From contig QPGO01000015.1 of assembly GCA_008632985.1 (NCBI GenBank), forward strand, positions 683,998 through 747,997: a stretch of DNA of 64,000 nucleotides. Reading direction: 5' to 3'. Positions 30,075 to 59,351 of this stretch are shown piece by piece. The stretch is from Psammoneis japonica. Lineage: Eukaryota. Position 1 is the first letter of the stretch; each line of letters opens with the position of its first letter. The notes beneath the pieces are model-generated. The model made no database searches. It was not told where the DNA came from and saw only the letters and a list, made by a program, of their open reading frames with translations. The position numbers were made by a program, and so were the translations under genes.

Positions 30075-30477
30075 TTCTTTGGCGGCTAGCCAAGGTAGTC
30101 TGCTTTACCATTCGTGTTCTTCGAGCCTGTGGAGGAGGGGGCGGCAAAAAGCGATGCTTCTCAAAAAACTGCGCCGCCAAGGAGTTTTTAGTCCCGAGTC
30201 TTGATGTCATTATGCTGATCAATCGTGTGAAATTTGTCAAAAATTTGTTCTTATGCTCATGCGCCACCAACTCATGCTTCAGTCGTGGTTTCTTTTCGAG
30301 ATGATGCTTCCGGAAGCGTTCTCATCTACATGTAAAAGACAATGCAACAACGGGAGTCTCAACCCACGCGGTTTCACCGCCAACGCATGTAACAGAGAGC
30401 ATTTCATGGCACTGGTGCAAACTCTCAAACCCCGAGAGAGCTTGTTTGGTTGCTTCTTGTTGCTTTTTGCGGCTGGG

Positions 30478-31520
30478 CCACCTGTCTTGGCTTCGAAAGA
30501 ACCACTCATTTGGACAAGGGTCAGAGTGGCATGTCTGTCTCAGGTGCTGCTTTTTCACTCTGATTGATGATGCAATCACTTTGTTCTTTCAAAAAAGGAA
30601 CAAAGAGCAGAGCAAGAGGTGTGGTTGTTGTGACCAGGATGTGATGAGGCAGGCAAAACAGACCTGAAAAAGCTGTTTGTGTCACCCCACATGTCTTTGA
30701 AGCAGCCAGGATGAAAAGCCAGCTGAAGCTGCTTTGCTTCCACAGACTGCCAGCAGAACTCTGGCTTTGACAAAGATCACACCAGAGAGCCACTGCTGCC
30801 TTTGGCTGTGCTTGTCTGCTTGCAGCTGTTTTGACAGTCGGGGCCTGCCACCACGCAAGAGATGTGCCCAAGAGAGTTGACAACAATCGCAAGCTCTTTG
30901 TGGAAGAATTTGAGTTGAGAGGCAGAATTTGCCAAATTTTCTAGATCTGCCCTGAAGTGCTTCCACATGAGTTTGATGGTGTGTCACACACAGCATCATT
31001 GACAGAGATGACACAAGCGCAAGGGGTTTTGTGGGTCAGGGTGGCAGAGAAACAGAGTGGAAGAAACAAAAAGGGGGTGCAACAAGCCTGAGCAAAAAAC
31101 ATGAGAACAAAGTGCATTGGAAAGAGGAGCATCTTCCTGGCATGAAAAGTGATTTACAAGTGAAGCTGTCATGCTGTGCGTTGTGCAGAGCTGCAGCAGC
31201 AAGGAAGCTGCCGGCGCCAGCTTTGCAGATCTGTCAGTTTTTCAAGTCAACCACAACCAAACTCTGAGATGAGAAATGGGGGTCATCAGGGTGATGCCTC
31301 TGACAATGAGAGCTGCAAAGAACCCTGTTGGTTGCACAGCTGCCTGTGCCAAAACACAAAAAGCTGAAAAACAAGACAAGCTTGCCACCACCTGCCTTGT
31401 CTTCTCTTGTCAACACAAAGTGTGAATCTTTTGATGACAAAGTTTGCAAAACAGCAGGAGAGGAGAAGAAAGAAACAACAAAGAAAGCCAAGTCCTCCAA
31501 TGGCAAAACTGGTGAAGCAC
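30478..31520 (+). pseudogene. Decayed duplicate of FAN1 upstream region and 5' coding sequence (part 1)
   Basis: Aligns by eye to ~37760-38760. Examples: ctgtcttggcttcga, tttgtggaagaatt and ctgtcagtttttcaagtcaacc; translation KLKNKTSLPPPALSSLVNTKCESFD vs KLKNDTNLPPPAASSLVNKKCESLD. Confidence 0.9.
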
Positions 31521-33949
31521 AGCAGAAAGGAGAAGAAAGAAGCAGAGGAAAAAGCTGGGGTTGATGGTTTGACACTCACTGGCCAGGCATCTGCAACATG
31601 TTTTGGTGCTTGCCTTGTTAAGAATGAAACTTGTCAAGAAACAAAATTGTTGCATGTGGGCTGTCTCTGTCCACCAATCTTCGATTTTCTCACTTGTCAA
31701 TTGTGCATTCTCACAAACATTTTAATTTGATTGTGAAACTCACCAACAAACAAAATTGTCACAAACACGCCAACTCTGTCCAGTTGTTAATCATGCATTT
31801 GTGCAAACGTTAAGTCACAAATGATTTGACCATTTTTTGCCTGCGTGGCCCGATTTGCAGTCGGCTGACACACACATTTTTTCACACCACACCACACACC
31901 ACATTGATGCCAACAGCCGCAATGATGTGATTCATGCATTTCAACTCTTCTGATGACTCCCTTTGCTGGTGTCGACTCACCACAGTCACAAAAGGTGTCA
32001 CATGTCTTGGGTGTGTTGTGGGTGGGGGCTTTGTTGAGAAACATCGTTCTCTCATGTTGACAAGAAACACCAAAAAACATGGAATTGACATGACCCATGC
32101 TTTGATGTGTGTTCATTCAATGCATCTCCTCTCTTGTGCACCATTGCTGTCATCTCTTCATCATAGATGCAAAAAGTGTCCCCCATCTTGTTTGTGCTGT
32201 GTGCTTGATTTGTGGTGAGAAATGTTGGTCTCACACTTGTGTGGTCTCGCATCAGCCATTTGTGATTGTTGCTGACCCATGCTTTGATGTTTGTTTGCCC
32301 ATTTTGTTTCTTTGCTCACACTTCTTTTTTCTTGTCTCTTCTTTGTAGTTTCGAAAAGATTGTTTTGTCTTGTGTTTGCTTTTGGTGGGGTCTGTGAAGA
32401 GAAGGATCCATCATGCCAACTGAGGCATGCACCGAAATTTTCTCCTGGCTTTCCCAGCTGTTGTGGCAATGCACTTTTCAACCGAGGTGGTGGGCATGTT
32501 GGAAGCCAAGAACTGGGATCTCAAGCATGTGGAGAGTGCATTTTCTTTGTCAGGTGTCCACTGCCAATGTGGGGAGCACACCTGAGATGGCAGCATCAGT
32601 GATGACCATAAGATCCAGTGCAAGGCAATCAACAAGGCACTCAAGGTTCTGGGCCACAAAGCTTGGAACTGTGGGTGCAAGAGTGGGGAGCAATGCAATG
32701 AAATGACAACAACAATTGAAGTGGCTAAAGAAGCTTCTGGATGCTACAAATTGAAGTGCAAGACGATCATCAAGTGGTTTCAACACTGTCTTCAATTCGG
32801 AGAGACACCGGCCGAAGGAGTGTGGTGCATGATGCTGCCAATGAAAATGAGGAAGCAACAGCTTCAGATGACAGAAGAGTTTGTTTGGCATCACCATTCT
32901 GTTTCACAACTCAATTGGTGTCCAACAGATTGGATGAGTGGGAAAGATGTGTTCTCAGAAGTGAGGACAGTGCATGTGAGAAAGGCACTTGGTGGCACTG
33001 TGCCTGCTGCTCTGCTGGAACTGCTGCTTGGGACTGTGGTGAGGTGGTGTGTTTTCCGCCAAATTGACAACATTGACATTTGTTGGCAGAAACACCCCAT
33101 TCTCCACCCATGGAATGTCGAAGGTGCCAAACAGGGCTTGTGCCGCATGCGTGCTCCTGACACCATCTGATGCCGACGGTTGGCTCAATTGCTGTGACAA
33201 TGGATTGAGTCTGGATGTCAAGTTGGAAGATGTCTCACAAATGACATGGTTTGTCCTGCACAGGACCTGGTTTGCAATTGCCGTCCATCATTTTTGTCCA
33301 TGTGCTGTTGGATTTCCACTGAGCACTGCAGCTGGGTGTCGTGCAGCCTGAACCAGCTTGCTGCTCTCTGCTCCAGCTGGCTGACAGGTGCTTGCTGCAC
33401 AGAGTGAAAGGACAGTGGCTAAAACAGGTCAAGCAACATCTCAGAGCACATGCAGGGCTGCATGTGATGTCAGCCTGACCATTTTTGCAGATGGCGGCAA
33501 TGGGCATTTTGGGATTTGCCGCCTCAGCAAGAGCCCTGCATTGACTGATCGGTCCACATCATCCTGCTTCTTCTTGTTTGACATTTTCTTGACTCTCCAA
33601 AGACATTTTCAAAGGCATCTCCAGTGCTCTTCTTTCTCCATTTTGGCCTGAACCCTGACAATGACTTTGGCAAGCACACCCCCCGCCCAGCACTGCAGGA
33701 AGAGAAGCACTGGGAAGAGCAGGAAGAGTTGCACAGATTTAAACTTGCCAAGGCATTGTCTTTGCATCTCATGAAGCAAGCAACAGCACCACTGCTTGGA
33801 AAGCCATTGCCAGATGACAGAGACCAGAAAAATGTCTCATCTTCTTCCCTCTTGCCATTGCCGCAAATGAAGACAATGGCCAGAGTTTGTCGGCCACACA
33901 TCCTCAGTTCCCAAGGGGTTCACTCTGGTGGCAAGTTTGATGAGATGTC

Positions 33950-35900
33950 TTGCTGGTGTCTCCAGTTGTTGGAGCAACAAACTTGCTGGGGGGGGATGGT
34001 GCATGATGCACAGGCCAGTGCCACTTGAGAAACTAAAATGGAGCATGTGGTGGTGCTCCAGATCATCATCATCACCATCAATGCAAAATGGTTTGAGTTG
34101 CCGCCTGCATGACATGCACCCCAAATGCACTCAGCCTGCATTTGTTGAGTGGGTTCTTGGCCCAAGTGTGGTGTCTTTGCAATCTTGATTTGGGAAGCTG
34201 CAAGCCATGTCTTGGGCAGCAGCAGCAGCCCAAGGCATGATTCCTCCACACAAGAAGATGCCCAGCTTCACAAGGTGTGAAAGCACCGCGCCCACAGATG
34301 TGGCACAAAGAAGGAGGTTCACAGCTGTCTTGGGATGGCATTGGAGGACTCCAGTGGGTCCCAGAGGATGCAACAACAACAATGGTTGGGAAGCAAAGGC
34401 TTTTTCTTGTGTCCACACAGCCCTTTGTCTCTCTGACATGACCGGGCTTCTTGGCCCAGCCGCCACACCTGCAAAAACAAGAAAACCATCTGTGCGACAG
34501 TGCAAGTGCTCTGTTGTCTTGGGGTGGCCTTGGATGACTCAATCGGGTCCCAGAAAATGCAACAACAACAACGGATGGGAAGCAAAGGCCTTGTCTTGTG
34601 TTGGTGCGGCACCTTGTCTCCCTGGCATGACTGGGTTTGGCCCAGCAAAGAACCGTCCTGCTGCAAAAGAAAGACAAGGGAACTGTCTGTGTGACAGTGC
34701 AAGCACTCCATGTTGTCTTGGGACATTTGCAAGAGACTCCATTGGGTCCTCAAGGAGGCAACAACAACAGTGGTTGGGAAGGAAAAGCCTTGTCTGGTTG
34801 TGAGTTTGGTTGCATGTCTTGGTGTCTCTAACTGGAGCAACAGGCTTGCCAAGGGGTGCACGGCACATGAATGGTGCACAGGCCAAGGCCACTCAAGAAA
34901 CTGAAGTGGAGCATGCAGTGGTGGTGCCCCCATGTTCCAGCAAACATTTGCCAAATGCCAAGCCAGATCATCATCATCATTGTCAATGCACATTGGCTTG
35001 AGTTGCTGCCACCTGCATCATGACATGGACCCCAAAGAATGCACTCAGCCTGCATTTGTTGAGTGGGTTCTTGGCCCAACTGTGGTGTTTTTGCACTCTT
35101 GATTTTGGGAGCTGCAACAGCCCCTTGCATGATTCCTCCACACAAGAAGATGCCCAGCAGCACAAGATGTGGAGGCACCAGCCAACCTGCAGAGAAAAGG
35201 GAACCATCTGTGTGATGGTGTGAGCACTCCGTTGTTTCAGGATGGCTTTTGGCAACTCAACACCTGCAAGAAAGACAAGGGAGCCATCTGTGTGACAGTG
35301 CAAGCACTCTGTTGTCTCAGGTTGGCTTTTGGTGGCTCAACCTGCAAGAAAGACAAGGGAGCCATCTGTGTGACAGTGCAAGCACTCAGTTGTCTGGGGA
35401 TGGGCACCACAAGAGACTCTGTTGGGTCCAGGAGGAGGCAACAACAACGGCGGTTCTTGGGAAGGAAAAGCCTTGTCTTGGGCCAGTGCAGCCCCTTTTC
35501 TTTCTGATGTGATCGGCTTGCTTTGGTGACCAAGCCACCATCCCACCTGCAAAGGCAAGGGAGCTTTCTGCAGACAGCGCAAAAGTGCCCAGATGTCTTT
35601 TGCTGGCCTTGGGTGATTCCATTGTGTCCCAGGAGAGCCAACAACAACAACCTTGGTTGGGGAGCAAAGGCTTGTCTTGTGTCAATGTTGCCCCTTTTCT
35701 TTCTGACATGACTGGTGGCTTCTTTGGTCCAGCCAACACACCTGTGCAAAGATCATCATCGAGCCATCTGTGTGAAAGCACAAGTGACCAGTTGTCTTGG
35801 GATGGCTGTGGGAGGAGACTCCATTGGGTGCCAGGGCATGCAACAACAATCATGGGAATTTGGTGCCGGTGCATGAGAAATTCAAGATTTTTGGTTGCAA
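33950..35900. repeat. Degenerate tandem repeat array (~190-bp unit with a (CAA)n core) plus higher-order duplication
   Basis: The unit gttgtcttggg...gactccattgggtcc...caacaacaac..ggttgggaag.aaaggccttgtctt recurs at ~34325, 34513, 34712, 35390, 35600 and 35790. Block ~33955-34280 repeats at ~34820-35170 (shared gcactcagcctgcatttgttgagtgggttcttggcccaa). cctgcaagaaagacaagggagccatctgtgtgacagtgcaagcactc occurs twice, 79 bp apart. Confidence 0.85.
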
Positions 35901-36105
35901 TGGCTGGAGAGTGCTGCGGGCCCAAATTGACATGGTGCGCAGTGGCTTTGTCATTGTGGAGGCAGCAGCAGTGGTGGCAGTTGCTGGGTTTGGACCATTG
36001 GCTGGCACTGCAGCAGCTCCAGCAGCAGAGCCTTGGTTTCTCTGAGAGCTCCTGCTGTCGAGCTCTTGTGGCTGAGATTGAGCTTGAGATTTGCCAGCTC
36101 AACCT

Positions 36106-36222
36106 GCACAGCAAGACTGTGAAAATTTGCATCTTTACAAGAACACATTGACATGATGAAAACTGTGCAGCAAGACTGTGAAAATTTGCATCTCAACAAG
36201 AACACATCAACACAATGAAAGA
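36106..36222. repeat. 59-bp tandem duplication
   Basis: cagcaagactgtgaaaatttgcatct..acaagaacacat..aca..atgaaa appears twice in tandem. Confidence 0.85.
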
Positions 36223-36714
36223 TGAGAAATTGACCGACTGCCAACACACATGTGAAACCTCAATGACTGGATGATTCATCAAGTCATTTCAAATCATTCA
36301 AACCTTCAAAACTGAATGTGAGCATGGAATTTTAAAACAAAATTGTCACTCAAAAATGATGCCAACAGGAATCACCAGGCAGACAGGCTTGACATTGCTG
36401 CAAAAACACGAACCATCATTTCCTCACAAGACACAAAACACAAGGCTCGTCAAACATCGTGGCAGTGACATCAGAAGCAAGGGAAGGCAACAGAAGAGCA
36501 CCAGGGGGGAGGAGGACAGTGCAAAACACAAGGCAAGAGAGAGGCAGGAACTGAGTTGGTGAGTGCATGGAGCTTGGGCAACAATGCAAACAACTGATGC
36601 TTTTGCCAATCTTTCAACTCAGACATGATTTTGATGACATGCGAGGGGAGCCAGAAGGGAAGACGGCCCTGCAGGGGCCACACAAAGGTGGGCAGAAACA
36701 GCGTTTGCACCAAG

Positions 36715-36952
36715 CACATTCAAAACAATGCAAACACAATGCTCTCATCTGTTGCATGCTCTTTTCTCTTCTTTGCAGGCGATGCTTTGGCAAACTGATG
36801 CGAAACACGAAAGAGACATGGTCGCATGCAAAGGTGAGCAAAAGCTCGCTGTTTTTGTCAAGACAAGCCCACTCAAAAAACAAAACACATGCAATGCTCT
36901 GATCTGTTGCAAGCTCTTTTCTCTTCTTTGCAGGAAAAGCTTTGGCAATCTG
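36715..36952. repeat. ~80-bp direct repeat pair
   Basis: caatgctct.atctgttgca.gctcttttctcttctttgcagg...gctttggcaa at ~36737 and ~36892. Confidence 0.8.
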
Positions 36953-37585
36953 GCATGATGAGCAAAAGAGACAAGGTCACGACACAGAACGAACAACGGG
37001 ATTGTGCGTGGCAAGCAAGAGCGGATGCAAGGGGGTCAGCAAAATGAGCAAAGCATCATGCCATCACTGTGGCATGGGAGAACCGGCAGGAGACAGGAAC
37101 AAGCCAAGGAGGGAAGAGCAGGAAACAGGAAGCAAAAACACATTCACACTGCAGAAATGACAAAACACAGCTGGCACAATCACATTGCAAGGAACACACA
37201 GCCAATGCACGAGCATCTTGGTGCTGCAAATGAGTGTTGCAGTTGTCAGAAATGAGCAATGTTGCAAAGCAGTCACAATTGCACCCTTGTTAAGAAGTTT
37301 CATTGACAATTGTTTCCTGCTTGAAAGGTCGCATTAATTGTGAATGCAGCAAACTGAACAATTTCAGGGTCATTGTGGTCGCAATCTTGTGCAAAGATTG
37401 AATGAAGAATTAGAGTCATTTTCATCAAGTGTCAAGTCCTGCTTGGAATGTTGAAACAATTGTTAAAATTGGTTCACACATGATCAATGAGCACTTGTTG
37501 AGAACACAGGATTCTTGACAAGAGCAAAACGAGTTCTGAACAAGAGCCATGACATTTTCCAGACCAGCTTGCTTCTTTGGGCGAT

Positions 37586-37715
37586 CTTGCACGACAGAAT
37601 GTGGAGAACAGGGGCCAACAATGCCAGACTGTGTTGAAAGGCAGGAGGCAACAATCTGAGTGCTGTTCACCACATCTGCCAACTGCATCTGCCAGAGCAG
37701 CAAAAAATCTTGGTT
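37586..37715 (+). pseudogene. Decayed duplicate of FAN1 coding sequence (part 2)
   Basis: Matches ~38819-38937: ttgcacgacagaa..tggaga and caccacatctgccaactgcatctgccagagcagc vs ttgtacgacagaagatggaga and caccacatctgccaattgtatctgccagagcagc. Confidence 0.9.
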
Positions 37716-38284
37716 TGTTGGATGAAAACAAACAACATCTCAGTGCACTCTTTCTCTGGACCACTGTCTTGGCTTCGACCAAACCATTCATCAAGACAAT
37801 GACCCAAACAGCATCTCTCTGTCTCAGCTTCTGTGTTCTTCATTGCAGTGGAGTGCTCCTTCAAAATGATGAATGAAGAGGAGCAAGGTGATGAGGCAGG
37901 GCAGGCAGGCAGCCAGTGCAGATCTCAAGTGTCTGTCTGTCCCCCCATCATGACTTTGAAGCAGCCGGAATGAACAAGCCAGCCGAAGCTGTTGTGCCTG
38001 CTGCCGTGCATGGAGTCGACTGCATCCTGGATGAAAATCACAATTGGCCCTGCCACTCTACCATCTTAGAAAGCAGCTGCCAGCTGCCGCCTTTGGCTGC
38101 GTCTTATCTGCCACAGTTGTTGTGACGGTCACGAGCTATTTGTGGAAGAATTCGAGCTACGGCGGCATTTTTTCCATTTGCCCCCGGGAGTGCATTTTGG
38201 AATTTGCCCAAGATTTGCCCCCCAAAATCTTCGCTCACGGACACAAAATGTTTGCATCGACATACTGTAAATGACAAGGAATTT

Positions 38285-41200
38285 ATGGATCAACTGATGG
38301 AGGAAGGAAACAGAAACAACGACAAGGACGCAACAAGCTCGAATGAAAGACACGAGAACAAAGTACGTCCAAACGAGGGGCATCTTGCTGGCACTAGAAG
38401 TGATTTATCAAGGGACTCGTCATACCGTGCTTCCTACAACCGCAGTAGCGCGGAAACCGGTACCAGCTTCCTACCTGTCAGTTTTTCAAGTCAACCGCAA
38501 TCAAACTCTGAGGTACGAAACGGGGGTAGTCGGTTTGATTCTTCTGACGATGAGCCTGAGATCCTGTTGGTTGTGCAGCCGCCTACGCCGAAACGTCAGA
38601 AACTGAAAAATGACACAAACTTGCCGCCACCTGCCGCATCTTCTCTCGTCAATAAAAAGTGTGAATCTTTGGATAACGAAATTGGCGAAACAGTGGGGGA
38701 GGAGAAGAAAGAAACAGAGAAGAAAACAGACTCTCGGTCAGCAACCACTGATTCGCCTCAGTATAGTTGCCAAACATCCGCCTACGTGCAAAATCTTGCG
38801 GAGATTTGCTACACCATATTGTACGACAGAAGATGGAGAGTAGGCGCCAATAACGCCAGATTGTTGGAATGGGGGAGAGGCGACGATCTAAGCGCTGTGC
38901 ACCACATCTGCCAATTGTATCTGCCAGAGCAGCGAAAGAGCGAAGTCCAACAAAAGAGAGAACGATGCCGATGCCTGCTATGCCGATCAAACAAGGAGAA
39001 GCAGCCACTTCTCGACGAAATTCAGTCCCAAAGTAACGCACAGGGAAAAGGTTTACCAGTATCTATTGAGAATGTCAAGGGGACAGCTGGTGAACTTGAC
39101 GAAATGGCTGATGATGATGTTCGTGCACTCCACCTTTACTGCCGTCTCTTTTATCGGAAGGGTCCCTGGTTTCGCCTCGATGACTTATATGCACGCTATT
39201 ACGCTCCCAAGAATGAGAGAATTCGAGATGGCTCTACATTGTCATCTTCATCTGAAAGCAGCAATGATAGCGCGAATGACGCCACAGCATCGACGGAGTT
39301 CTTCCTGCCAAAGAAAGCAGGAAGAAAGAGCCCAAGTGTGATCGACGTTGAGATAGATGATGAAGTTTATGAGGCCGTCGCCTTGCTGTGTCGTGATGTT
39401 TCTCGCCTTCATTCTCTAGGGATGATTCGATCATTTTGCAGCGAAGAAGAGTGCGGAAAGACGGTTGGTGAGGTGTCGGGCGACGGAAAATGGGCTTTTT
39501 TCACTGCGGAAGAGCGTCGCACAATATTGTCCAAACTTGGCGGCGGGTCCAAAACGTCTGCTACTCACCAATCGAAGCGAACACCTTCAATGCCGGATAA
39601 AGGTGGAGGAAACATGAGCAGGAGGAACGAAAATTTAGTGTGGAGACAAATGCGTCGACAGCACTCCATTGTTGGACAAATCAGCAAGAACGAGGACCGT
39701 CGAGTCCTGTTGCCTGTGAGACGCCACGTTAACGAGTTATTGTATCAGAAGCTTGCCGCAAAAGCGGTTCTCTCTTCCAATTCTGATAACAAGAAATCTG
39801 CATCGATTATTCGGGAAAGAGTGACGGAAGCAAGAACTGCCATTCTTCGCCGCATTGAAGACGACCACATTGGGTTGGACATGTGTATTCGCCTCCGCGA
39901 GGCTCCCCTCCTTAGCTTACGTCGTTTCACTCGATTATATCTTTGCGCGTCACATGGTCCTGGCAATATGCGAGGCGATGGGTCAAATGGGTGGATGAGC
40001 TTGAAGGACCCGCTTGCCTTGCACAAAGATGTGCCAATGCAGAATTTTGTTTCCCCTCCCGGCTCTCATAGGTGGCATAGCATTTCATACCCTGCACTGA
40101 TGCATCGTTTCGGCATGAATACTTGCGCCTTTGCGAATTCCTTTCAGACGTTGCCGATGATAGATGGAAGTTCTCATCAATTCGGACAGGAAGAACACAT
40201 CTATCGGGGGTTACGAACTTCTGATATGGAACGTGTCTTCACCAACCATAGTGACTTTCTTATTTGGGAGCTGTGTGCTGAAATTCGAGCAAATGTCGAC
40301 TATCTCATCGAGGTGAATGATTTAACACATTATCATGCTAGGCGGCAAGCTCGCCAGGGAAATGAAGCATGCGGAGATGATAATAATTCCGGGGTTACGA
40401 ACGAGAGCTCACGCCCGCCTGAAATGTCACCTGCGAGTAACCTATCCATGTCATGCCATGTCGATTTTCTCGACCTACTGACAACAGCTGGAAGGCTAGA
40501 CATGCTGCGGAGCTTGATGGTATGGTGCGACCACGACGAACGCGTTTCGGATTTTGCGGACGTCATTTCTGAAGTTCAGAAAAAAGTAGAAAGCGACGTC
40601 TTGGCGCTTGGTGTCACGGTGAAAGTAGCAAACGAATCTCCTTCAGGGACCACGATTTTGCCTACTGCAGTTTCCGGTTTGTGCACCGAAGATGTTGCAA
40701 GCTGCTTCAAGAACGAATACGAAATGATTTTAGGGGTTGTTGCCGTGGTTTCTATGCATGTTCTGAGTTTTCGACATCGCCGTGTGTCACCGCTCGACGT
40801 TTCATTGAGAGTTGCCAGACCTTGGCTCCGACATTTGTGGTGGGACGGGAATCTGGCTTATGTGCTCTGGGATTGCATCCCAGTTCTGGAGAAGCGAGGA
40901 TACTACGGGCTGGCCTCTCGGGCTCTGGAAGTGCTGCTATTCGGCTCTTTCAAAGACCAACAAACAATAGAGGTTTCTGTCCCAGGCGAAGCTATCCGGC
41001 AAAATATTATGCCACCCTCAGCACCGTATGCCGCACTGCTGATATCCAGAAGAGCCCGTGGTAAAGCCTTTGAACGACTCGTGATTGACTACACGCATAT
41101 TCTTCGGACACGATCCAAAGAAGTGAAACCGAAACACGCGAAAGGTCGCAGAGCTGAGAAACAGACGCAGAAAAAGGTCACCCCGAATCATGTAGCTGCT

Positions 41201-45783: not shown

Positions 45784-46076
45784 GGTGCTGCTTGCTGCTT
45801 CGCTTAGCTTTGGCTTGATAGACGGCGTGGAGAGAAAAAGGGCAGGTTAGACGGTCGACGGTCACACGAGCATGACACGCACCACCTGGCCTGCCTGGCT
45901 GAATGACAGCAAGCTCTATGGTAACCTTAGTTGAGAGCGACGGGGCGTTCCTACTTCGAACTCGATGTTTCTTCTACGGTAGCAAGTGGGTGGTCAGAGA
46001 TATGACAATGACGCCTTTACGAATTTAGGCTCATGGTCGTTGTGATAGCAGGTGCCAGGAGTTTGGAGTTTCGATA

Positions 46077-51413: not shown

Positions 51414-51681
51414 GGTGGTGGAAATCTCTTGAAGAAGTTAATCGACAATTCTCTTCTTTTATTCTTTCCTTTGATGGTTGGGTTATCGTGTTCTTTTTTT
51501 GTTTTTGCTTCCTCTTTTTGGTTGGCGACGCGAAAAATGCGCGCGAAAAAGCTCACGTGCTTTGCAATACCAACAAAGCGCGTATAGATCGTAGTATGTA
51601 GAATTTGTATTGACTCTACGCCTAGCATGTAAAGCAGTGGTATAGACGCAACCTGTTTCGCGCTGCGCGGCTGAATTGCTG

Positions 51682-52048
51682 TGCACTATGCTCGAAGAAC
51701 GAGTGTAAACGAAAGTAGAATAGTGTACGAAAAGTGGAAATTATAAGATTAAATTTTGCTCTGTGATTTTTGGTTTCTCCGAACGAGTTCTCAATGGCCT
51801 AAAGCTTCTGTGCTGCTTCTACAGACAAAAGGCCTTTCGGAGAATACATTCGTGACAACAGATTGTCCGGACACGATTGCTGTTGACACGCAAGATGTCA
51901 ACATCGTCAATCGATCGTATTTGCAATTCTCGACATCCGATCAACTCTGTGTGATCGTTCTGTCCTTTGCACGCATCCACGACTGTGGTGCGATTGACAC
52001 ATGAATGGTGTGCAATCACAAACATGTGTGTGACAGTCGCACACTGCA
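51682..52048 (-). repeat. 3' LTR
   Basis: Ungapped match to 56040-56406; adjacent to the PPT. Confidence 0.93.
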
Positions 52049-55000
52049 TTCGCCTCCCCAATTGCACATTAGAGTCATTTGTAAGTGGATCATTCGACGG
52101 ACATCGACAGTGTCAACAATGTCTCCACTTTCACTGCATTGTGCCATTGGCAATGACTGTTGTTGTTTTGTACAGGCAACACAGGGCCGTTCCAATTTCC
52201 GAATGTCTTTTGAGAGTGACATTGTTTGTTTCTCACTTAACATGTGCACACATGGAATTACGTCGAGCATTCTCATTGACGTTCTTGTTGACATGAACAC
52301 AAGGACTAATTGTCCTGGAGTGAGTGTTTTTCCTGATGTCGATTGCACATGGCATCGTGCCCAGTGCTTAATGTGTGCTCTTAATTGTGGCGTTCACTTG
52401 CTTGCTTGTGGATTTCATGCAGTTTGGCGGGCTTGCTTTACACGCCACATTGCTCTGCTGCACTGCCACGTTTCACAAGCAACAACAAACGATGGTCAAA
52501 GATGTTGTGACCATTTCGTCTTGATGATCAATCCTGTGATTGTTATGAATTCCATTGTGGATTTTTTTTTGCACTTCAACCATCCATCAGTTGGATTTTA
52601 ATCGTCATTTGGACGTTTCTTTCTGACATGCCGGTGTCATTTTGTCATTCCGAAGGCACTGGTTTCGTGCACTAAGTGGATGAATGTCCATTTTTCTTTT
52701 CTTTTTCTAGATCTTTGGCACATCTCGTGTGTCGACATGATGCACATTTTAATGTCTTGCCTCGTACATTGTACAATACAACCGTACGGGTGTTGTGAGA
52801 TTGTCTTTTGCCAGTGTGAAGTGGATGCGTATAATGTATGCCAATCTGTCACTGTTTTTTCCTAAATCGTCCTTTAAAAAGGCGATTTTATCCTTGTGAC
52901 ATGAGCATTTTTCGATCTCGCTCGCCTCCACGAAAAGTGTTCGTATGATATGTCGCGTCCGACAATTTGGAGGGAATGTCTTTATCCCGTTTTAACGGTA
53001 GGACATTGTCGTAGGATTCAATTTTCTATAGTAAGTCGGCTGATCGCGTCTATCGCGACGATGTTCGCCTTGCCCTCGTTGTATTCTAATTCGGGACTGA
53101 AGTTGTCAACGTATGACTTTGTCCGTTGTGTCTTATGATCCGTGTATGTATAAATCTGTTGGCCAAACAGTATATTTCGGAATTTTATAAGTGTTTTCAC
53201 TATGGACAGAAGTTCTTTTTTCCGTTGTAACATGTGTTGTTGAAATCCGTGTATGATAACAATATAGTTTTTGATTTGATACGCTCCACATTTTCGGAGA
53301 CTTTTCGTTCCGTACTTGTACTTTTGCCGTTTGACCTTTGTTGAGGTGAATTTGGCTAGTATTGTACAGGAGATCGTTGAGACTACATGTCTCGATAATA
53401 GTAACGTATGACAACGAGATGTCGTAGTGTTCTTTACGTTTTTCTCGTGTTGCGATTGCTTAAATCGCCTCCATTTTCTTTGTAATCGATTGCATGTCGT
53501 TACGTATGGAAGTCTTGATAGTTTATTTCAAGTTAAATAGTGAAGGACTTTTGTTGTTAACCTTCTAAGCAACTGTTCTAGTCGTTTGAATGCCGCATTA
53601 AGCTGTTACTTGTACAGGTGATATTTTGAAGTTACTTTTGTCAGGCACAAACGATCACATATAGTCGTTCTGACAACTTCAAACCTGTTATGAGTTCACT
53701 CAAGTGTTGTATAAAAATGTCTGGGGCTCTATAGATTCTCATTGGAAGTCCACAGTGCTCATTTTCTCCCCACGGCATGATTTTCGTGTGAGCACGACGT
53801 GTGCTTTTTTTATTTGACATGGTGGCATTCCATGTTTGAATCAAATAGATTACATATATGAAACGTTCTTGCTTCAACAGTATTTCCTGAACATTGGGTA
53901 AAGGACACACCACCTGTATGAACCTTGTGCTGAGCTTCTGAGTGTCGGATGCGGTCGAACTCGACCTGTTTTCTTTAGACAATGAGTCTCAGAGCGACTC
54001 ATTCAGAGCAACTTCATTCTTAAGACTTCAATCTTTCATAATAGGTCAAACTCCTTTTGATTGGACGCCTCCAAAGACTGTGACAGGAGAAGGTTCTCAC
54101 GCGTCGTGGAATCGCGTCAGATTTTCCACGATGAGATCCACTGATGCTTCCCACACATTCGTCTGAGGAACTTTTCAAAACGATTTCAACCTCTTAAGAA
54201 GAAGATTGAGTTGGTTGTGTTCATTTGGGTTAGATGCATCGCCGTAGTTGTCACTTGATTAAGATCGATGGCGTGACAATGTGAGTCGAGGACCATTGGT
54301 TCCGTCATTGACTCTGTTCACGGCGTCACATTTTTCAATGTGATCGGTTTTCAGCTTGAAAACATCGGCATCGAAGAGTGTGTGAACATTCTTCATAAGG
54401 CAATTGCTTCTTCCCATTAGATTTCTTCATTTGCGTAGTCCAGTGTGACTTGTAGGACTGGACATTAAGTCGCGTCCCATGATCACATCATTTGAACCTG
54501 AAGAAAATTTGGTGTTTTCAACACACACTGTTTGCATGTCAGCATGCCTTAAATTTCGCACAGTGAGAACTGAATTCGGTGTTTACTGTCAGTTGTAAAG
54601 AGCTCACCCTTGGTTTCCCAAGTTTTTGGTGGCGGATTCTTGTGTTCTCAACTTTCGCACGAATTTGCGCAAAATTGTGGTTGACGATGTTCCGTTGTCG
54701 ACAGGAACACGCAGATGCTTTTTTTCTCTCCTTTCCCAAGGAAGTGTTCATATAAATGATGACTCCTGGACCAGTGTGAATTATTTCTGCCTTTTTTCTA
54801 GGCTTCCTAACATCCAGCAAAGCATGTGATTCGTGAATGGACCAAAATTGTTCTTCGGATTCAGTCTGGATCATCCGATCAAATTGGTGTTTTTCTTCAC
54901 TGAGGGCACCAGAATCTGATTCTTTGCCCTTGTGCTCTTTTTCTTTGTTCAAGGAACTCGCTTTGAGCATTTTTTGAACCGCCTGATCAATCATGACGTT

Positions 55001-56039
55001 CATCTCTTTTTTTTTGCGAGCGGCATTTTCGTCATCGCGACGCGACCGCGTGCGATTGCCATTTGAACGGCGCATTTTTGGGTCTCTTTCAGAGTCACCC
55101 TTGCACTCTTTTGCTAGTTCATTTTTAGAATGGCTTCAATCCGTGATGCAGGTATTCTTTTTTCAAAGACAAGACCTTGCATTCACTTTGGATTGTTCTG
55201 GTACCATGCAGGAGACCATTTTTGGAACCAAATTTGGAACCTTTTTTATTTTGGAACCAACTGCGCCATCAGAGCCTGAGTTGACATGTTTTTTCGTCAC
55301 GGACGTCATGAACGACCTTTAGATGACTCAAAACTTAATCAGCTCATCAAGGATGAGTTGCAATGGTTGATTGTTTTGGACAGTAGACTGATGCTGCCAT
55401 CCTTGCGGTGCGAGTGACAGCTGATAAATCAGCGCTCGGTTTCCCGCTAGATTCGACTTAGAATCCATCTGAGGGTCGCACAGACTCTCATCATTGACCT
55501 CTTGGGTCTAACAGAGGCTTTCTTGCTGTCAAGCAGCTCTGGTTTCTTCAGATCGTCTTGAAAATGACAATTCTGATTCTGAAGTGCAATTCTTGGAAAG
55601 ACATGAGACATGAGACTCTTGAGGTACTTTCCAACGGTTCCATCTTGCTCTTGGACTCAAGGCTCGTTGATTCGGTCTCCAAAAACTCTCCAACAGTCTC
55701 TCCTTGCATGCCAGACGCATTTCTCGGACCTGATCGACTCGGAACTTGCATTCTCTGCAACCATGACTTGGTGTAGATTTTTTTGATAATGCGGTGTACT
55801 TGAGAGCCCTTGATCCTTGGGTGCTTGGAACAGACCGCATTAAAGCGAATCCTCTTGTCTGGCAGACGAAAAACAGCGTCCCATCTTGAGGTGCTGCTCG
55901 GCTTGAGCTTCTTCCGCTCGGAAATCGATTCCAGCAGAACTGGTGCGATTCGTTCCTGTTTGTAGAAGAATTTGCAAAGGCACATTAGTTAAAATTTTCA
56001 TTTTCCGTGCTTTTTACCTTCTGTGGTGTGTATGCACAA

Positions 56040-56406
56040 TGCACTGTGCTCGAAGAACGAGTGCAAACGAAAGTAGAACAGTGTGCGAAAAGTGGAAATC
56101 ACAAGATTAAATTTTGCTCTGTGATTTTTGGTTTCTCCGAACGAGTTCTCAATGGCCCAAAGCTTCTGTACTGCTTCTACAGACAAAAGGCCTTTCGGAG
56201 AATATATTCGTGACAACAGATTGTCCGGATACGATTGCTGTTGACACGTAAGATGTCAACATCGTCAATCGATCGTATTTGCAATTCTCGACATCCGATC
56301 AACTCTGTGTGATCGTTCTGTCCTTTGTGCGCATCCACGACTGTGGTGCGATTGACATGTAAATAACATGTAATCACAAATGTGTGCACAACAGTCGCAT
56401 GCTGCA
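56040..56406 (-). repeat. 5' LTR
   Basis: Ungapped match to 51682-52048; upstream of the gag-like region on the minus strand. Confidence 0.93.
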
Positions 56407-56767
56407 GCTGTGACACCTTCGAACCTCCACAGCCAGAATTTTTTTACCACGACATAACCACGGCCGCTAGCGACATCCTCTTTTGATGTTGCCACTGTTC
56501 AACAAGAAGCTTGCTCTCGCCGACACCACTTGCGCTCTCAACAATGGAAACTAAGAGATTTTTGTCGGGTGAGTCACATCCTTTATCGTGCACTTTCCAC
56601 GGGCTCAGGAAGTGTCGGCACCAACCCATTTTTTTCTCTTCAGCTCTCATTGCGGCTCGACCCATCCCAACCTACCCGAAGACGTGTGTCTCCGTTACCG
56701 TCAACAGGAGCCCGTCACCACTGGCGCCTCCATCAGTTCTGGGCTTGCCATGCCCACTGTAGCGACC

Positions 56768-57510
56768 ATGACCATCGACAACCCACATCTTGACATTGTG
56801 CACCGGCCCGAGTTTGACATGATCGACGACAAACCCAAGAACAATTTGTCGCAACTTAGAGGAGAAACGGCTGCAATTGACGTGTCCATTCCTCTTTACA
56901 AGATCCTCCTCGACCCAACAGCGGCAAGGCAAGTGCATGCCTCACCAAAGAAGACACCTGTTGGTCAAGCAGCAAAACTTTTGGTGCAGCGTCACAACAG
57001 ACTTTACAAACAAAACGGCATTGAAGCCGTGCACGTTTTTGACGGCGCTCACAACCCGCTCAAATGGCGAACTGATGCAAAGCGTAGAGCCAGAAAAAGA
57101 CCTGTTGAAGACAGGACATTGTTTCTTCTTCAGTGGAACCGGCCAGAACAAGATAGACTCGAGGTGCTGAACAGGTGGAAAAGCATTGTTTGTCCAAGAG
57201 GTGACATCATGCTCCTGATCAAGAAAGCATTCGACCGAGAAAGAATCCCGTGTGTTCAAGCTGCCATTGAAGCTGAAGCGCAGTGCGTGGAGATGCAAAA
57301 TTCGGGGGTTGTCACACACATAGAATCTGAGGATGGTGACGTGCATGGGCACAACGGTGAGAAATGGATCACCAACTTAAACCCCCACAATGGCGACTGC
57401 TGCATGTTGGTGGCGGCTGATGTCGATGCTCATGAGATGCTGGAGGTGGCCGTTGGAAGGATTTCAAGTGTGCCACTCCTGCTTTTTGTGGTTGTGACTA
57501 CAATGTCAAG
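56768..57510 (+). pseudogene. Transposon-borne Exo1/FEN1/XPG-family 5' nuclease, truncated
   Basis: XPG-N motifs (LSQLRGETAAIDVS, GIEAVHVFDG...PLK..T..KRR) and XPG-I motifs (IPCVQAAIEAEAQC, IESEDGD), with FCGCDY in a shifted frame at ~57484-57501. Confidence 0.8.
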
Positions 57511-58750
57511 CCAGACAGTTTGCCTTTTTCAGAGACGATGGAAGGATGCGCAAATGCGACTGACAAGAAAAAGTTTCTCGCGGACATTGAAACAGGTGAT
57601 TGTCCATGAAGTCCAAATCGAGCATGGACATGCAAAGCCCCACTTTTCCAAGACGAGGCATCCACATCTGTGCTGTCCGTGGAAGCCAGCTGTTGCCTTC
57701 ACGATGCCATGTCGACCCCAAAGTTGCCACCCGACAATCCCGGTGCATTGTCATTGCACATGTCAGCACCTCTTCGACCGCCGTGAATCGCTCCTTTCCC
57801 ATGCCGTGTCTTTCCTCTGCATCAGGAAACCAAACCTTGGTGACACAGCAGATGGTTTCCTTGAATGTGCCTGGTCCCCAAAGATGCTTCGCCATTCTGT
57901 CATGATCCTCACGCCACTTGCCGCTCGTCAGATTCTCCCTGCTCAGTCCACCCATCGCTTCAATCTCATCCTCCCGCTCCAAGCACACTTTCAACTTTTG
58001 AGCCTTGTCTGCCAGCTCTGACGATGCTTTGTCGGCTCTTTTCAATGCAATTTGAAGCAACTCATTCACACGCTCAAGCTCCACTCGCAACCTGACATTC
58101 TCCTTTCCCGCTCCGTCTGGATCAAATGCGGCGTTCCTCTGTGCTGCTGCAACTTTTCGGACTGTTGGCGGTGGACGAGGCAAGTCTCTTGCATGGTCTT
58201 CCTCATCAAGATAAACTCCAATGGGGTCCAATGATGCGCGGGCTGACTTAGCATCTCGCTGACAATCTTTCTTGGTGCAGTTCGGCGCCGGGCAGTGTGA
58301 CATTTTTCCGTTGCTCCGATCTCTTGCGTCACTTTTGTGAAAGCACAGCAATTCTCACGTCTCACAGTCCACATTTTCCAAAGGACCTTTGTTGTCCTCT
58401 TTTAAAACAGCAGGATGGAAATGATTGAATCCGATGTGTTCATAATTGCCAGCAGGTTCCGGTGGCACACAAGAGTTCCCAACAAGATGCCGATGCGCCA
58501 CGACTCTCATGTTGTTGTCACTTGCATTGCCGCTTCCATGTGGCCTTCTTTTGCTGGCGCAGGGAAGGTGGCAGCAACCACACCTTTTTTTGTCACCAGC
58601 ATCAATGAAGTCCTTTGTGCTCTGCTTGCACTCTTCCTTGTCACGGCAGATGCAAGGGCAGAGGGTAGAGTCGCACACCTTTGTGATGGTTTCTCTGGGG
58701 ATCTCGCTTGCGTTTGGGAGACGCCGCCGCAGATGATTCTTCTGTCATTG
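57506..58750 (-). pseudogene. N-terminal part of an ISL2EU/Harbinger-like transposase (Cys/His zinc-binding region, coiled coil, HTH); catalytic core absent
   Basis: Starts just inside the right TIR. Cys-rich segment ending HFH (THAP-like), coiled coil, then FTAVEEVLTCAMTMHRD...LG..W...W.PRL resembling the HTH that precedes DDE_Tnp_4 domains. Frameshifted. Confidence 0.55.
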
Positions 58751-59351
58751 TTGCAGCAGGCAGAGGAACGCCAAGTCTGACAGATGCACCAGTGGTGACG
58801 GGCTCCTTTTGACGGTAATGGAGACACACGTCTTCGAGTGGGGTGTGATGGGTTGAGCTGCAGCGGGAGCTGAAGAGGAAAAAATGGGTCAGTGCCGATG
58901 ATTCCTGAGCCCGTGGAAAGCGCACGATAAAGGACACGACTCACCCAAAATGAGGCTCTTAGCATCTGTTGTTAAGAGCGCAAGTGGTGTCGGGGAGAGT
59001 AACCTTCTTGTTGCACAGTGGTGATGTCAACAGAGGAGGTCGTCAGAGGCCGTGGTTTTGTCGTGGTAAAAAAATTCTGGCTCCGGAGGGTCACAGCAAT
59101 TCAGCGTCCGGGTTCCGTCTATGGAGAGACGATCAAAGGAATTGGGAATTTCACCTCTCCGCTCTTGTTTGAAACATGCATCCGTCCCGAGCGAGCTGAA
59201 ACTCCAAACTCCATCCGACAATACAGCATAGCCGACAAAACAAGAATCCAGGGAAAAAATGAGAGCCACCCAAAACATTTGCGAGTGAATCAGTTTGCTC
59301 CAGTTTCTACTCTCTAGAGTAGAGAGTAGAGCCCTACTACTAGAGAAGACC

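Follow-up and report, generated by a model that had tools for sequence, protein, structure and literature searches.

The closest described parallel to the sequence reported here comes from the chlorarachniophyte B. natans. Mutation-accumulation lines of this alga carried 231 mutations in two integrated viral regions; 230 were A>G or T>C, every one of them at TpA (Mettrop et al., bioRxiv 10.64898/2026.01.13.699255). As described in the main text of that preprint, TpA mutation arises de novo in culture at about 1000-fold the baseline rate, and a deaminase recruited to silent chromatin was proposed for it; the same main text makes no mention of LTR, retrotransposon, CpG, context, flanking, TTAA or diatom (bioRxiv 10.64898/2026.01.13.699255).

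Other known systems share part of the picture. RIP, in ascomycete fungi, also produces transitions at a single dinucleotide, is aimed at transposons and repeats, can run near completion and leaks in tracts, but it changes C:G to T:A at CpA and so increases TA and reduces GC, which is the opposite direction and target to those seen here. RIP makes stop codons, whereas a change of TA to CA or TG cannot turn a sense codon into a stop and removes TAA and TAG. ADAR and APOBEC in animals leave clustered deaminase-type transitions in retroelements; they act on RNA or reverse-transcription intermediates and are strand-biased, unlike the changes here, which are symmetric, appear to be post-integration and reach DNA that is not retroelement-derived. 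Methylation-driven CpG decay of transposons is also relevant, as diatom LTR retrotransposons are described as CpG-methylated (PMC2806351). Older repeats here have likewise lost CpG to TpG/CpA, but that decay leaves TpA alone and is much slower here.

The window, by which we mean the whole stretch of 64,000 nucleotides analysed, encodes genes most like those of pennate diatoms, among them a Na/Ca-exchanger ORF that matches pennate diatoms at 62-76% identity. It contains an LTR retrotransposon whose features, overall, are best explained by regional TpA to CpA/TpG hypermutation that acted patch-wise after insertion, a reading to which we give a probability of about 0.8. The process and its direction, from TA to CA or TG, we hold to be very likely. 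As in the main-text description of B. natans, the changes are almost solely A:T to G:C transitions, restricted to TpA, yielding TpG or CpA according to strand, in regions of foreign origin. In contrast to B. natans, the host is a diatom-like lineage, the evidence is comparative instead of coming from mutation accumulation, and the targets are an LTR retrotransposon, an inverted-repeat element and a 7.7-kb tract instead of viral insertions.

The retrotransposon and its LTR pair

The element is a degraded Ty3/Gypsy-type LTR retrotransposon of 4725 bp (51682..56406) with its coding strand on the minus strand, recognised by an LTR pair and by remnants of reverse transcriptase and then RNase H. The low-coordinate LTR (51682..52048, minus strand) is the 3' LTR in element orientation, and the high-coordinate LTR (56040..56406, minus strand) is the 5' LTR. 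Their termini read TGCA...TGCA, in keeping with Ty3/Gypsy LTRs, and they are flanked by a 4-bp target-site duplication, GCTG (51678..51681 on the left, 56407..56410 on the right), indicated both by the LTR alignment and by an empty-site joint: contigs joining 51683 to 56423 (two in run X1, one in run X2) represent a paralogous surrounding repeat without the element. A purine-rich run beside the 3' LTR (52049..52059), read from the sequence, is polypurine-tract-like on the minus strand.

In minus-strand order, the reverse-transcriptase remnant (53239..53985; about 25% identity to ten Gypsy pol proteins) precedes the RNase H remnant (53027..53221; 43-53% identity, Pfam RT_RNaseH E 9.8e-6). The integrase region gave weak matches alone (52989-52684, E 0.033, and 52126-52031, E 0.001), and neither gag nor protease was recognised in the element by domain search. 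The longest ORF is at most 198 aa, and the minus-strand frames hold 65, 61 and 43 stops.

Composition divides the element into parts. TA-poor tract A (51812..52750; TA O/E 0.23, CA/TG O/E 1.80, CG O/E 0.86) comprises the inner part of an LTR and the region where integrase is expected, which is barely detectable there. It is followed by a TA-rich core, apparently unconverted (52751..53750; TA O/E 0.83, CA/TG 1.05, GC 0.39), in which lie the element's only recognisable pol domains, namely the RNase H remnant and most of the reverse-transcriptase remnant, together with all four retained conserved Tyr codons. TA-poor tract B (53751..56158; TA O/E 0.29, CA/TG 1.32, CG 0.86) runs from the edge of the reverse transcriptase into the high-coordinate LTR, where it takes in the initial 119 bp, and includes a conserved Tyr changed to His (CAC) at 53757. 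Within the core, a conserved Trp has become a TAG stop at 53385, a G-to-A change; ordinary decay is present too.

The two LTRs aligned without gaps over 367 columns, with 29 differing sites, all 29 of them transitions and none transversions. TA in one copy stands opposite CA at nine sites and TG at five, 14 in all, and CA stands opposite TG at seven sites, which account for 14 differences, so that 28 of the 29 differences belong to the TA/CA/TG class; the sole exception, at LTR position 327 (G/A), is an A-to-G change outside TpA. Both LTRs hold the same 21 CpG, none of them changed, and five TA, and no site has CG in one LTR and TG or CA in the other. These results reproduce what an earlier note had read by eye: a gap-free alignment, 14 and seven sites of the two kinds, one other difference and about 21 shared CpG. 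When 20,000 sets of 29 random transitions were placed on the low-coordinate LTR, the TA/CA/TG class averaged 7.4 and never exceeded 17; 28 was reached in 0 of 20,000. The conversion products number 16 CA and 12 TG, without strand bias (p 0.57).

Events amount to about 0.64 per TpA per LTR and 0.0017 per other site. The note's proposal that such changes outpace CpG deamination holds against 0 of 21 CpG changed, and so does its warning about LTR ages, which would be inflated about 29-fold because divergence falls from 7.9% to 0.27% once the TA class is disregarded.

The changes are not scattered. The high-coordinate LTR lacks TA at seven sites, all within LTR positions 7-119, and the low-coordinate LTR lacks it at seven others, all within positions 131-332, while all seven CA/TG sites fall within positions 289-362; the separation into blocks is perfect (p = 0.0006). 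Thus TA is kept at 1-119 and converted from about 131 onward in the low-coordinate LTR, and converted at 7-119 and 289-362 and kept at 131-332 in the high-coordinate one. The earlier claim that changes arose after insertion, independently in each LTR, stands as to timing and direction, but not as to site-by-site action, since the changes form tracts, and the assignment of changes to one LTR or the other hinges on correct assembly of a family with very many copies.

A block-wise layout is also expected if family copies truly vary among TA, CA and TG and the contrast between the LTRs was made by assembly or polishing that mixed those copies. Read evidence consisted of contigs from runs X1, X2 and X3, all from one sample. 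The family is highly repeated, with 5149 matching X1 contigs and a summed depth of 150-380 times that of the flanks (which is not a copy number), and the X1 contigs on it carry 714 transition and 154 transversion places. We nevertheless consider such a mosaic unlikely, as small X3 contigs match distinctive parts of the element (one other letter in 122 at 51689-51810, none in 58 at 56170-56227) and the LTR blocks pass without a break into TA-poor tracts of the internal sequence next to them; hypermutation itself would still stand.

Direction of change

An independent-site model was fitted to the LTR site classes with either TA or CG as the ancestor. The TA-ancestor model fits (observed 5/14/7, expected 4.4/15.1/6.4, at 0.63 conversions per TA per LTR), and the CG-ancestor model is rejected (observed 21/0/7, expected 15.1/11.7/1.1, chi-square 44). 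An ancestral CG at the CA/TG sites, which had been left as a formal possibility, fails with that model. This result bears on methyl-CpG deamination, under which the seven CA/TG sites would be former CpGs changed on opposite strands in the two LTRs, with TA arising from second hits. Older repeats of the window (an inverted-repeat pair, the 7.7-kb tract and a gene duplicate) do show change of CpG to TpG/CpA, but the LTR pair keeps its 21 CpG, with 0 sites of CG versus TG/CA where 11.7 were expected, and each of the seven CA/TG sites falls in a part that is converted in both LTRs. At LTR positions 309 and 331, in the overlap zone, where the LTRs share TG, other contigs of the family have TA at 32-50% of depth, and not CG, among the best-supported 40 of 912 variant rows. 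Methyl-CpG deamination as the source of the LTR differences is highly improbable.

The same best-supported 40 of 912 rows include 29 inside the LTR element or the repeat that hosts it. Other contigs have TA where the window has CA or TG in 17 of these 29, and the reverse in two; two are CpG-type and eight are of other kinds.

Polarity could also be read from a gene. A diverged duplicate of the 5' part of a neighbouring FAN1-like gene (31079..31486, plus strand) lies in the TA-free 7.7-kb tract, and the gene copy of normal composition (38330..38725, plus strand) lies inside an ORF (38126-42673) with a VRR_NUC domain at its C-terminus. Across 12 TA sites of the gene, the duplicate has TG at six, CA at two, TA kept at one and another state at three; across 24 CG sites, it has TG at nine, CA at ten, CG kept at one and another state at four.

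A further comparison was made with 78 related Gypsy loci from metagenomes. Their medians (TA O/E 0.75, CA/TG 1.11) are like those of the core (0.83 and 1.05) and unlike those of tracts A (0.23 and 1.80) and B (0.29 and 1.32). Conserved-Tyr columns read His or Cys in 17 of 21 cases in locus L075, 6 of 14 in L063 and 7 of 19 in L071, and in at most three in any of the other 75 loci; control residues in L075 are kept at 0.78.

Where an outside reference gives the polarity, changes are thus almost only A>G or T>C (8 of 12 gene TA sites, 17 of 21 tyrosines in L075), in line with the 29 of 29 transitions in the LTRs, for which polarity is inferred. The LTR sites themselves are polarised by the three-state argument, by composition and by analogy with their neighbours. 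The earlier proposal of an ancestral TA resolved to CA or TG is supported by the model fit, the gene duplicate, L075 and the FEN1-type tyrosines described below.

A RIP-like C-to-T process (CpA to TpA), with CA/TG ancestral and TA the mutated state, would share with these data that all differences at TA/CA/TG steps are transitions in a repeated family, and the TA-rich core has borderline RIP indices in 53001-54000 (TpA/ApT 0.86, (CpA+TpG)/(ApC+GpT) 0.95) besides its one Trp-to-TAG stop. It is excluded at the seven CA/TG sites because CA to TA cannot leave one LTR with CA and the other with TG. The window's extreme tracts are, moreover, free of TA and not rich in it (TA O/E 0-0.3), TA is the earlier state in the normal gene copy and at conserved tyrosines, and it is the TA-rich part that contains the recognisable pol domains, with intact relatives at a TA O/E of about 0.75. 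C:G to T:A change at CpA that raises TpA was not found, and we regard a RIP-like origin as having almost no chance of being correct.

TA-poor DNA beyond the element

The element was inserted into a host repeat (56407..59123, with its first 41 bp at 51641-51681) that has inverted terminal repeats of about 350 bp. This repeat is TA-poor, with 27 TA in 2686 bp and a CG O/E of about 0.7; its inverted-repeat pair differs by CG/CA at eight sites and CG/TG at four. Within it lies a FEN/XPG-like ORF of 482 aa (56573..58021, plus strand) in which both FEN1-conserved Tyr positions are His (CAC). Tyr accounts for 3 of its 483 codons, or 6 per 1000 as against 24 in seven normal ORFs, and His for 60 as against 26.

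Also converted is a TA-free tract of 7.7 kb (30391..38058), with 21 TA in all, about 0-8 CG per 250 bp (11-25 outside) and nearly doubled CA+TG. About 80% of its CpG have been lost, and the TA and CG losses have the same borders. It holds Tyr-free ORFs that overlap on both strands and had no Pfam match. Composition changes sharply at both borders of this tract (about 30.39 and 38.06 kb) and also where the host repeat begins and ends, and neighbouring genes have a TA O/E of about 0.4-0.8, so that the depletion is confined as in B. natans. The gene copy at 38330-38725 is unmutated although its mutated duplicate is 7 kb away, which selection on the gene could explain, and the affected elements are repeated; from this copy and the single-copy target in B. 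natans, repeat pairing is probably not the trigger here.

The same TA signature, present in an inverted-repeat element of non-retro type as well as in a gene fragment, bears on editing before integration, by an ADAR-like enzyme on RNA or by a deaminase on the reverse-transcription intermediate, uneven between the LTRs. Under the reverse-transcription scheme, RNA edits would pass to both LTRs alike, but the LTRs differ, and edits identical in both LTRs on one strand, the ADAR-type pattern, were not found. Nor is there the strand bias that such editing would leave, and the converted tracts cross the borders between LTR and internal sequence, one of them continuing into the flanking host repeat. 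The B. natans changes, as the preprint's main text presents them, arise de novo in integrated single-copy DNA (bioRxiv 10.64898/2026.01.13.699255). In favour of such editing, A-to-G change with a 5' T/U neighbour fits the known preference of adenosine deaminases, ADAR included, for a U just 5' of the edited A, as given in the Discussion of the preprint (bioRxiv 10.64898/2026.01.13.699255), and vertebrate LTR elements are described as marked by APOBEC cDNA editing (PMC4866542). We judge editing before integration very unlikely.

Surviving TA are not a random sample of contexts. RTAY makes up 0 of 21 in the 7.7-kb tract and 0 of 27 in the host repeat, against 30% (548/1834) in the background, and 3 of 68 survivors in L075, against 27% (p 3e-6). 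TTAA accounts for 9 of the 21 survivors in the 7.7-kb tract (OR 21); its sparing was significant in the tracts of the window and not significant in L075 or L063. CpG decay differs in degree: the young LTR pair shows none, it is moderate in the host repeat, which is older, and in the 7.7-kb tract it has gone almost to completion.

The shared borders of the TA and CG losses in the 7.7-kb tract would suit a different chemistry for the same process, in which a TET/JBP-type dioxygenase oxidises the thymine of TpA to 5-hydroxymethyl- or 5-formyluracil and mispairing of the product with G leads to a T-to-C change, while the same enzyme acts on 5-methylcytosine in CpG. Each target is a 5-methylpyrimidine with a purine on its 3' side, the two forming a self-complementary step. 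Thymine oxidation is rather improbable, as CpG is untouched in an LTR pair in which 64% of TA per LTR have been converted, and the main text of the B. natans preprint reports no CpG component, the term "CpG" being absent from it (bioRxiv 10.64898/2026.01.13.699255).

Proposed process and its reach

Our preferred reading, regional hypermutation, would change TpA to CpA or TpG, that is A:T to G:C on either strand, in this diatom-like genome. Its substrate would be DNA that is already integrated, and it would be limited to transposons and to other DNA that is silenced or foreign, acting in patches that measure about 0.1 to several kb and in which the majority of TpA are changed. Conversion would begin with RTAY sites and spare YTAR, most clearly TTAA in the tracts of the window. 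The LTRs would have been identical at insertion and later covered by different patches over different parts of each; a hit in one LTR would leave TA against CA or TG, and hits in both on opposite strands would leave CA against TG. CpG decay would be a separate, slower process. The likeliest chemistry may be conversion of adenine in TpA to hypoxanthine by a deaminase, whether of the anticodon-loop type (TadA/ADAT-like) or of another, that is brought to silent chromatin, as proposed for B. natans; we put adenine deamination at about an even chance.

Sequence comparison supports the presence of TpA hypermutation in a second lineage besides B. natans; literature searches found no report of it in diatoms. 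The LTR clock, the post-integration tract structure, the order of RTAY before YTAR and the lag of CpG decay are additions because the main text of the preprint does not name them, and the absence of stop creation also goes beyond that text. A process so far described in one preprint on one alga would then extend to a distant, ecologically dominant lineage, opening the search for the enzyme to comparative genomics. More tentatively, diatoms and chlorarachniophytes might share, or have separately acquired, a chromatin-directed defence that amounts to a natural DNA adenine base editor, recognising RTAY in DNA that is silenced or invading and laying down processive A-to-G patches on both strands, a "reverse RIP" that scrambles proteins and TA-rich regulatory motifs without truncating them. 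If so, this base-editor defence would erase Tyr codons along with TAA and TAG and would never make a stop.

Several consequences follow for genome analysis and biochemistry. Dating by LTR divergence fails in such genomes, where elements hit at TA look far older than they are. Long ORFs overlap on both strands of converted DNA because TAA and TAG are removed and stops are never made, and gene finders may mistake them for genes; such ORFs lack Tyr and abound in His, Cys, Trp and Gln. Base-editing work would have an interest in an enzyme able to change A:T to G:C in TpA, here in RTAY, on chromosomal DNA, and the context rule together with patch-wise action gives a specific prediction for a biochemical assay. 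The same mark in 3 of the 78 metagenomic Gypsy relatives suggests that the process may be widespread among marine protists.

The LTR pair and its element

The two LTRs, at 51682-52048 (the low-coordinate copy) and 56040-56406 (the high-coordinate copy), align over 367 columns without gaps and differ at 29 sites, 100% of which are transitions. TA stands opposite CA at nine sites and opposite TG at five, CA stands opposite TG at seven (14 of the 29 differences), and a G/A difference at LTR position 327 is the only one outside this TA/CA/TG class; 21 CpG and five TpA are unchanged in both copies. This reproduces exactly the counts made by eye in the earlier note and confirms its observation on the pair. 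Simulating 20,000 sets of 29 random transitions on one LTR placed a mean of 7.4 and at most 17 in the TA/CA/TG class, compared with the 28 differences observed.

The classes of difference are separated along the LTR (p 0.0006). The seven sites lacking TA in the high-coordinate copy lie at positions 7-119 and run on from tract B, a TA-poor subregion of the element, the seven lacking TA in the low-coordinate copy lie at positions 131-332 and run on from TA-poor tract A, and the seven CA/TG sites occupy positions 289-362, a zone in which both LTRs are converted. Because the differences track the TA-poor tracts, the process works in patches, regardless of the border between LTR and internal sequence. 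At window position 52008, which is LTR position 327, the low-coordinate LTR has gone from TAA to TGG (A to G), and all other contigs there show A, as does the other LTR; a second A adjoining a converted A may sometimes also be taken by the process.

The presence of GCTG on both flanks of the element, together with contigs from X1 and X2 (runs of one sample) that join 51683 to 56423 and represent element-free paralogues of the surrounding repeat, indicates that the LTR pair belongs to a single insertion. Searches with ten Gypsy-type pol proteins (tblastn) located two remnants on the minus strand, first of reverse transcriptase (RT; 53985-53239, ~25% identity) and then of RNase H (53221-53027, 43-53% identity), with weak matches in the expected integrase region. 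A Pfam scan of the element, covering 34 stop-free segments, found RT_RNaseH on the minus strand and no other domain. Many stops occur in all three minus-strand frames, and the element has no ORF longer than 198 aa. The LTRs, the RT and RNase H remnants and the stops in these frames point to a degraded Ty3/Gypsy-type LTR retrotransposon. On the minus strand, a purine run adjoins the low-coordinate LTR. The element's family is very abundant; 5149 X1 contigs match the stretch, at a summed depth 150-380x that of the flanks, a ratio that is not a copy number. Self-comparison found no additional copy of the LTR family within the 64-kb window. The closest metagenomic relatives share ~42-50% amino-acid identity with the window RNase H, and are therefore no substitute for a family consensus.

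TA-poor domains and their coding capacity

The window is gene-dense and rich in long ORFs. For one ORF, a Na/Ca exchanger, pennate diatoms supply the top matches, with identities of 62-76%, none reaching 90%. X2 contigs leave out 44168-44377 (210 bp) and 46572-46658 (87 bp), both with GT..AG ends; these are spliceosomal introns of two genes, the shorter belonging to a guanylylate-cyclase-domain ORF (46029-47465), and such joints within genes make X2 look like RNA.

A 1-kb dinucleotide profile and a 250-bp map of the window showed that the mark seen in the LTRs is confined to three domains, and that it is stronger in the surroundings than in the LTRs themselves. Within the LTR element, tract A (51812-52750; TA O/E 0.23, CA/TG O/E 1.80) and tract B (53751-56158; 0.29 and 1.32) flank a TA-rich core (52751-53750; 0.83 and 1.05). 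The host repeat that carries the element (51641-51681 and 56407-59123, ~2.76 kb) contains 27 TpA over its 2.7 kb, with CpG at an O/E of ~0.7. It is bounded by inverted terminal repeats of ~350 bp, with the LTR element located inside the left one; its summed contig depth is 3-9x that of the flanks, and contigs of the RNA-like run X2 cover it. The third domain, a 7.7-kb tract at ~30391-38058, has sharp borders on both sides, 21 TpA left and nearly doubled CpA+TpG, with ~0-8 CpG per 250 bp vs 11-25 outside. The tract is repetitive within, with units 68-78% alike at ~34.0-35.9 kb.

By the genetic code, no sense codon becomes a stop through a change from TA to CA or TG, and such a change erases TAA and TAG. 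The 7.7-kb tract has 1.7 TAA and 0.65 TAG per kb, vs 8.0 and 8.1 in the background, and TGA is still found at ~20 per kb. It is because TAA and TAG are erased and no stops are created that long ORFs, with 0-0.5% Tyr, overlap on both strands of this tract, and that an ORF of 482 aa is intact in the host repeat. Pfam returned no match for 29 ORFs of the tract or for two ORFs of the host repeat.

Evidence for TA as the earlier state

The earlier note had proposed that ancestral TA became CA or TG, and this direction is supported by a gene duplicate, conserved FEN1 tyrosines, contig variants, the domains in the core and the element's relatives, several independent lines that agree on TA as the earlier state, and for the LTR pair by the fit of a conversion model. 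For the LTRs, a TA ancestor with independent conversion in each copy predicts 4.4, 15.1 and 6.4 sites at which conversion is visible in none, one or both, and the observed 5, 14 and 7 fit. We infer this direction for each individual LTR site, and likewise which of the two LTRs carries each change, a matter that depends on the assembly. Two other ancestries for the LTR sites were rejected: a CG ancestor gives 21, 0 and 7 observed against 15.1, 11.7 and 1.1 expected (chi-square 44), and a RIP-like change of CA to TA is unable to yield CA opposite TG.

In neighbouring DNA and in relatives the direction can be read directly. A 396-bp stretch of normal composition in a FAN1-like gene (38330-38725) has a 75%-identical duplicate at 31079-31486, in the TA-free 7.7-kb tract. 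Where the gene has TpA (n = 12) the duplicate reads TG six times, CA twice, TA once and other dinucleotides three times, and where the gene has CpG (n = 24) it reads TG nine times, CA ten, CG once and other four. The gene is an ORF at 38126-42673 with VRR_NUC at its C-terminus, its duplicated 5' part lying 7 kb upstream, and it is unconverted despite starting ~70 bp past the tract border. In a FEN/XPG-like ORF of the host repeat (56573-58021), the two positions where FEN1 structures conserve tyrosine, in the FYRT and VYVFDG motifs, both read His (CAC). Of the ORF's 483 codons, 3 are Tyr; set against seven normal ORFs, it has 6 vs 24 Tyr codons and 60 vs 26 His codons per 1000.

Contigs from one sample were also compared with the window. 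Among the best-supported 40 of 912 contig variant rows, 29 fall inside the LTR element or the host repeat, and in 17 of these the contig has TA where the window has CA or TG, with two the reverse, two of CpG type and eight other. The TA-rich core holds RNase H and most of RT. Homologues align mostly there, which leaves a test of conserved residues across the element with low power: seven conserved Tyr could be followed (four kept, one His, one Asn and one Phe); all four kept codons are in the core, and the conserved Tyr at 53757, just inside tract B, is His. Across 78 related metagenomic Gypsy loci, the median O/E is 0.75 for TA (range 0.41-1.07) and 1.11 for CA/TG, values that resemble those of the core, not those of the tracts.

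Timing, known systems and relatives

By the scheme of reverse transcription, the LTRs of one insertion are copies of one template, so their differences date from after integration, and the pair is a built-in clock for post-integration action. The conversion products are 16 CA and 12 TG (p 0.57), which indicates that strand bias is absent, and the same mark is found on DNA that reverse transcription did not produce, namely a gene fragment and an inverted-repeat element. Editing before integration was rejected on these three grounds, and the earlier proposal that the changes arose in genomic DNA after insertion is upheld by them. On the TA-ancestor reading there were ~0.64 conversions per TpA per LTR, vs 0.0017 changes for each site of any other kind, and the 42 CpG positions per LTR did not change at all, in agreement with the claim that the process outpaces both CpG deamination and background mutation. 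Inflated LTR ages had likewise been foreseen, and divergence is 7.9% raw vs 0.27% without the TA class. CpG decay is confined to older repeats: the inverted-repeat arms have eight CG/CA and four CG/TG differences, and ~80% of CpG is lost from the 7.7-kb tract. This decay fits ordinary deamination of methylated CpG, and diatom LTR elements are reported to be CpG-methylated (PMC2806351).

The overall interpretation first offered for the LTR pair, in its direction, timing and rates, is thus supported, and the evidence favors a very recently described process, TpA-targeted A:T-to-G:C hypermutation that acts on mobile or foreign DNA, here in a diatom-like genome; the chemistry of the conversion is one that we infer. 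A 2026 preprint on Bigelowiella natans reports the same signature as that of the window: two integrated viral regions took up 231 of the 302 nuclear mutations of its mutation-accumulation lines, and 230 of the 231 were A>G or T>C, every one at TpA, at ~1000x the baseline rate and in only some lines (10.64898/2026.01.13.699255). Its authors propose an ADAT2-like DNA adenine deaminase, and its main text makes no mention of LTRs, retrotransposons, CpG, flanking context, TTAA or diatoms (10.64898/2026.01.13.699255). In literature searches outside subscription journals, with two diatom papers (PMC2806351 and PMC12718438) examined by term search, the B. natans paper was the sole one on TpA hypermutation and no report in diatoms came up. 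Among older analogues fungal RIP comes nearest, but it runs in the opposite direction and creates stops, and ADAR/APOBEC editing acts before integration with a strand bias, whereas the process in the window acts after integration without one.

For the 78 metagenomic loci we scored columns covered by six or more of ten reference proteins and with Tyr in at least 70% of the proteins covering them. Such columns read His or Cys in 17 of 21 cases in locus L075, 6 of 14 in L063 and 7 of 19 in L071, and in at most three in each of the other 75 loci. The fraction of control conserved residues kept in L075, 0.78, lies inside the range seen across the other loci, and none of its conserved columns is a stop. 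This mark in three of 78 relatives means that the process also occurs in organisms besides the source of the window. The pol alignment of L075 is uninterrupted over 144-2744, and within L063 (2-3500) a 1.5-kb tract at 2001-3500 is TA-poor and CA+TG-rich with normal CpG. As a control, 13 terminal-repeat pairs of metagenomic loci had at least five differences; all 13 contained transversions, and in none did the TA class make up most of the differences (6 of 17 at the highest), in metagenome assemblies that are possibly imperfect.

Survival of TpA in converted tracts is non-random. RTAY makes up 30% of background TpA (548/1834), but it is absent from the survivors of the 7.7-kb tract (0 of 21) and of the host repeat (0 of 27); it accounts for 3 of 68 in L075 (p 3e-6) and 1 of 20 in the L063 tract (p 0.023), vs 27% in the 75 other loci. 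YTAR is over-represented among survivors. In the 7.7-kb tract TTAA supplies 9 of 21 (odds ratio 21, p 2e-8), at 0.91 of background density; in L075 and L063 the sparing of TTAA fell short of significance. Relative to core density, the tracts of the LTR element retain 14% of RTAY, 23% of RTAR+YTAY and 82% of YTAR, which gives the context order of conversion. As to whether position -2 or +1 drives this preference, comparison of the product classes RCAR+YTGY and RTGR+YCAY depends on the ancestral composition of each tract, and nine informative LTR sites, counted by eye, split 6 to 3.

In five other metagenomic Gypsy loci (L049, L041, L011, L033 and L017), CpG is nearly absent from the pol match (O/E 0.03-0.14) and TpA is normal. 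Their hosts presumably undergo heavy decay of methylated CpG, and the loci make a useful contrast to the TA-specific pattern.
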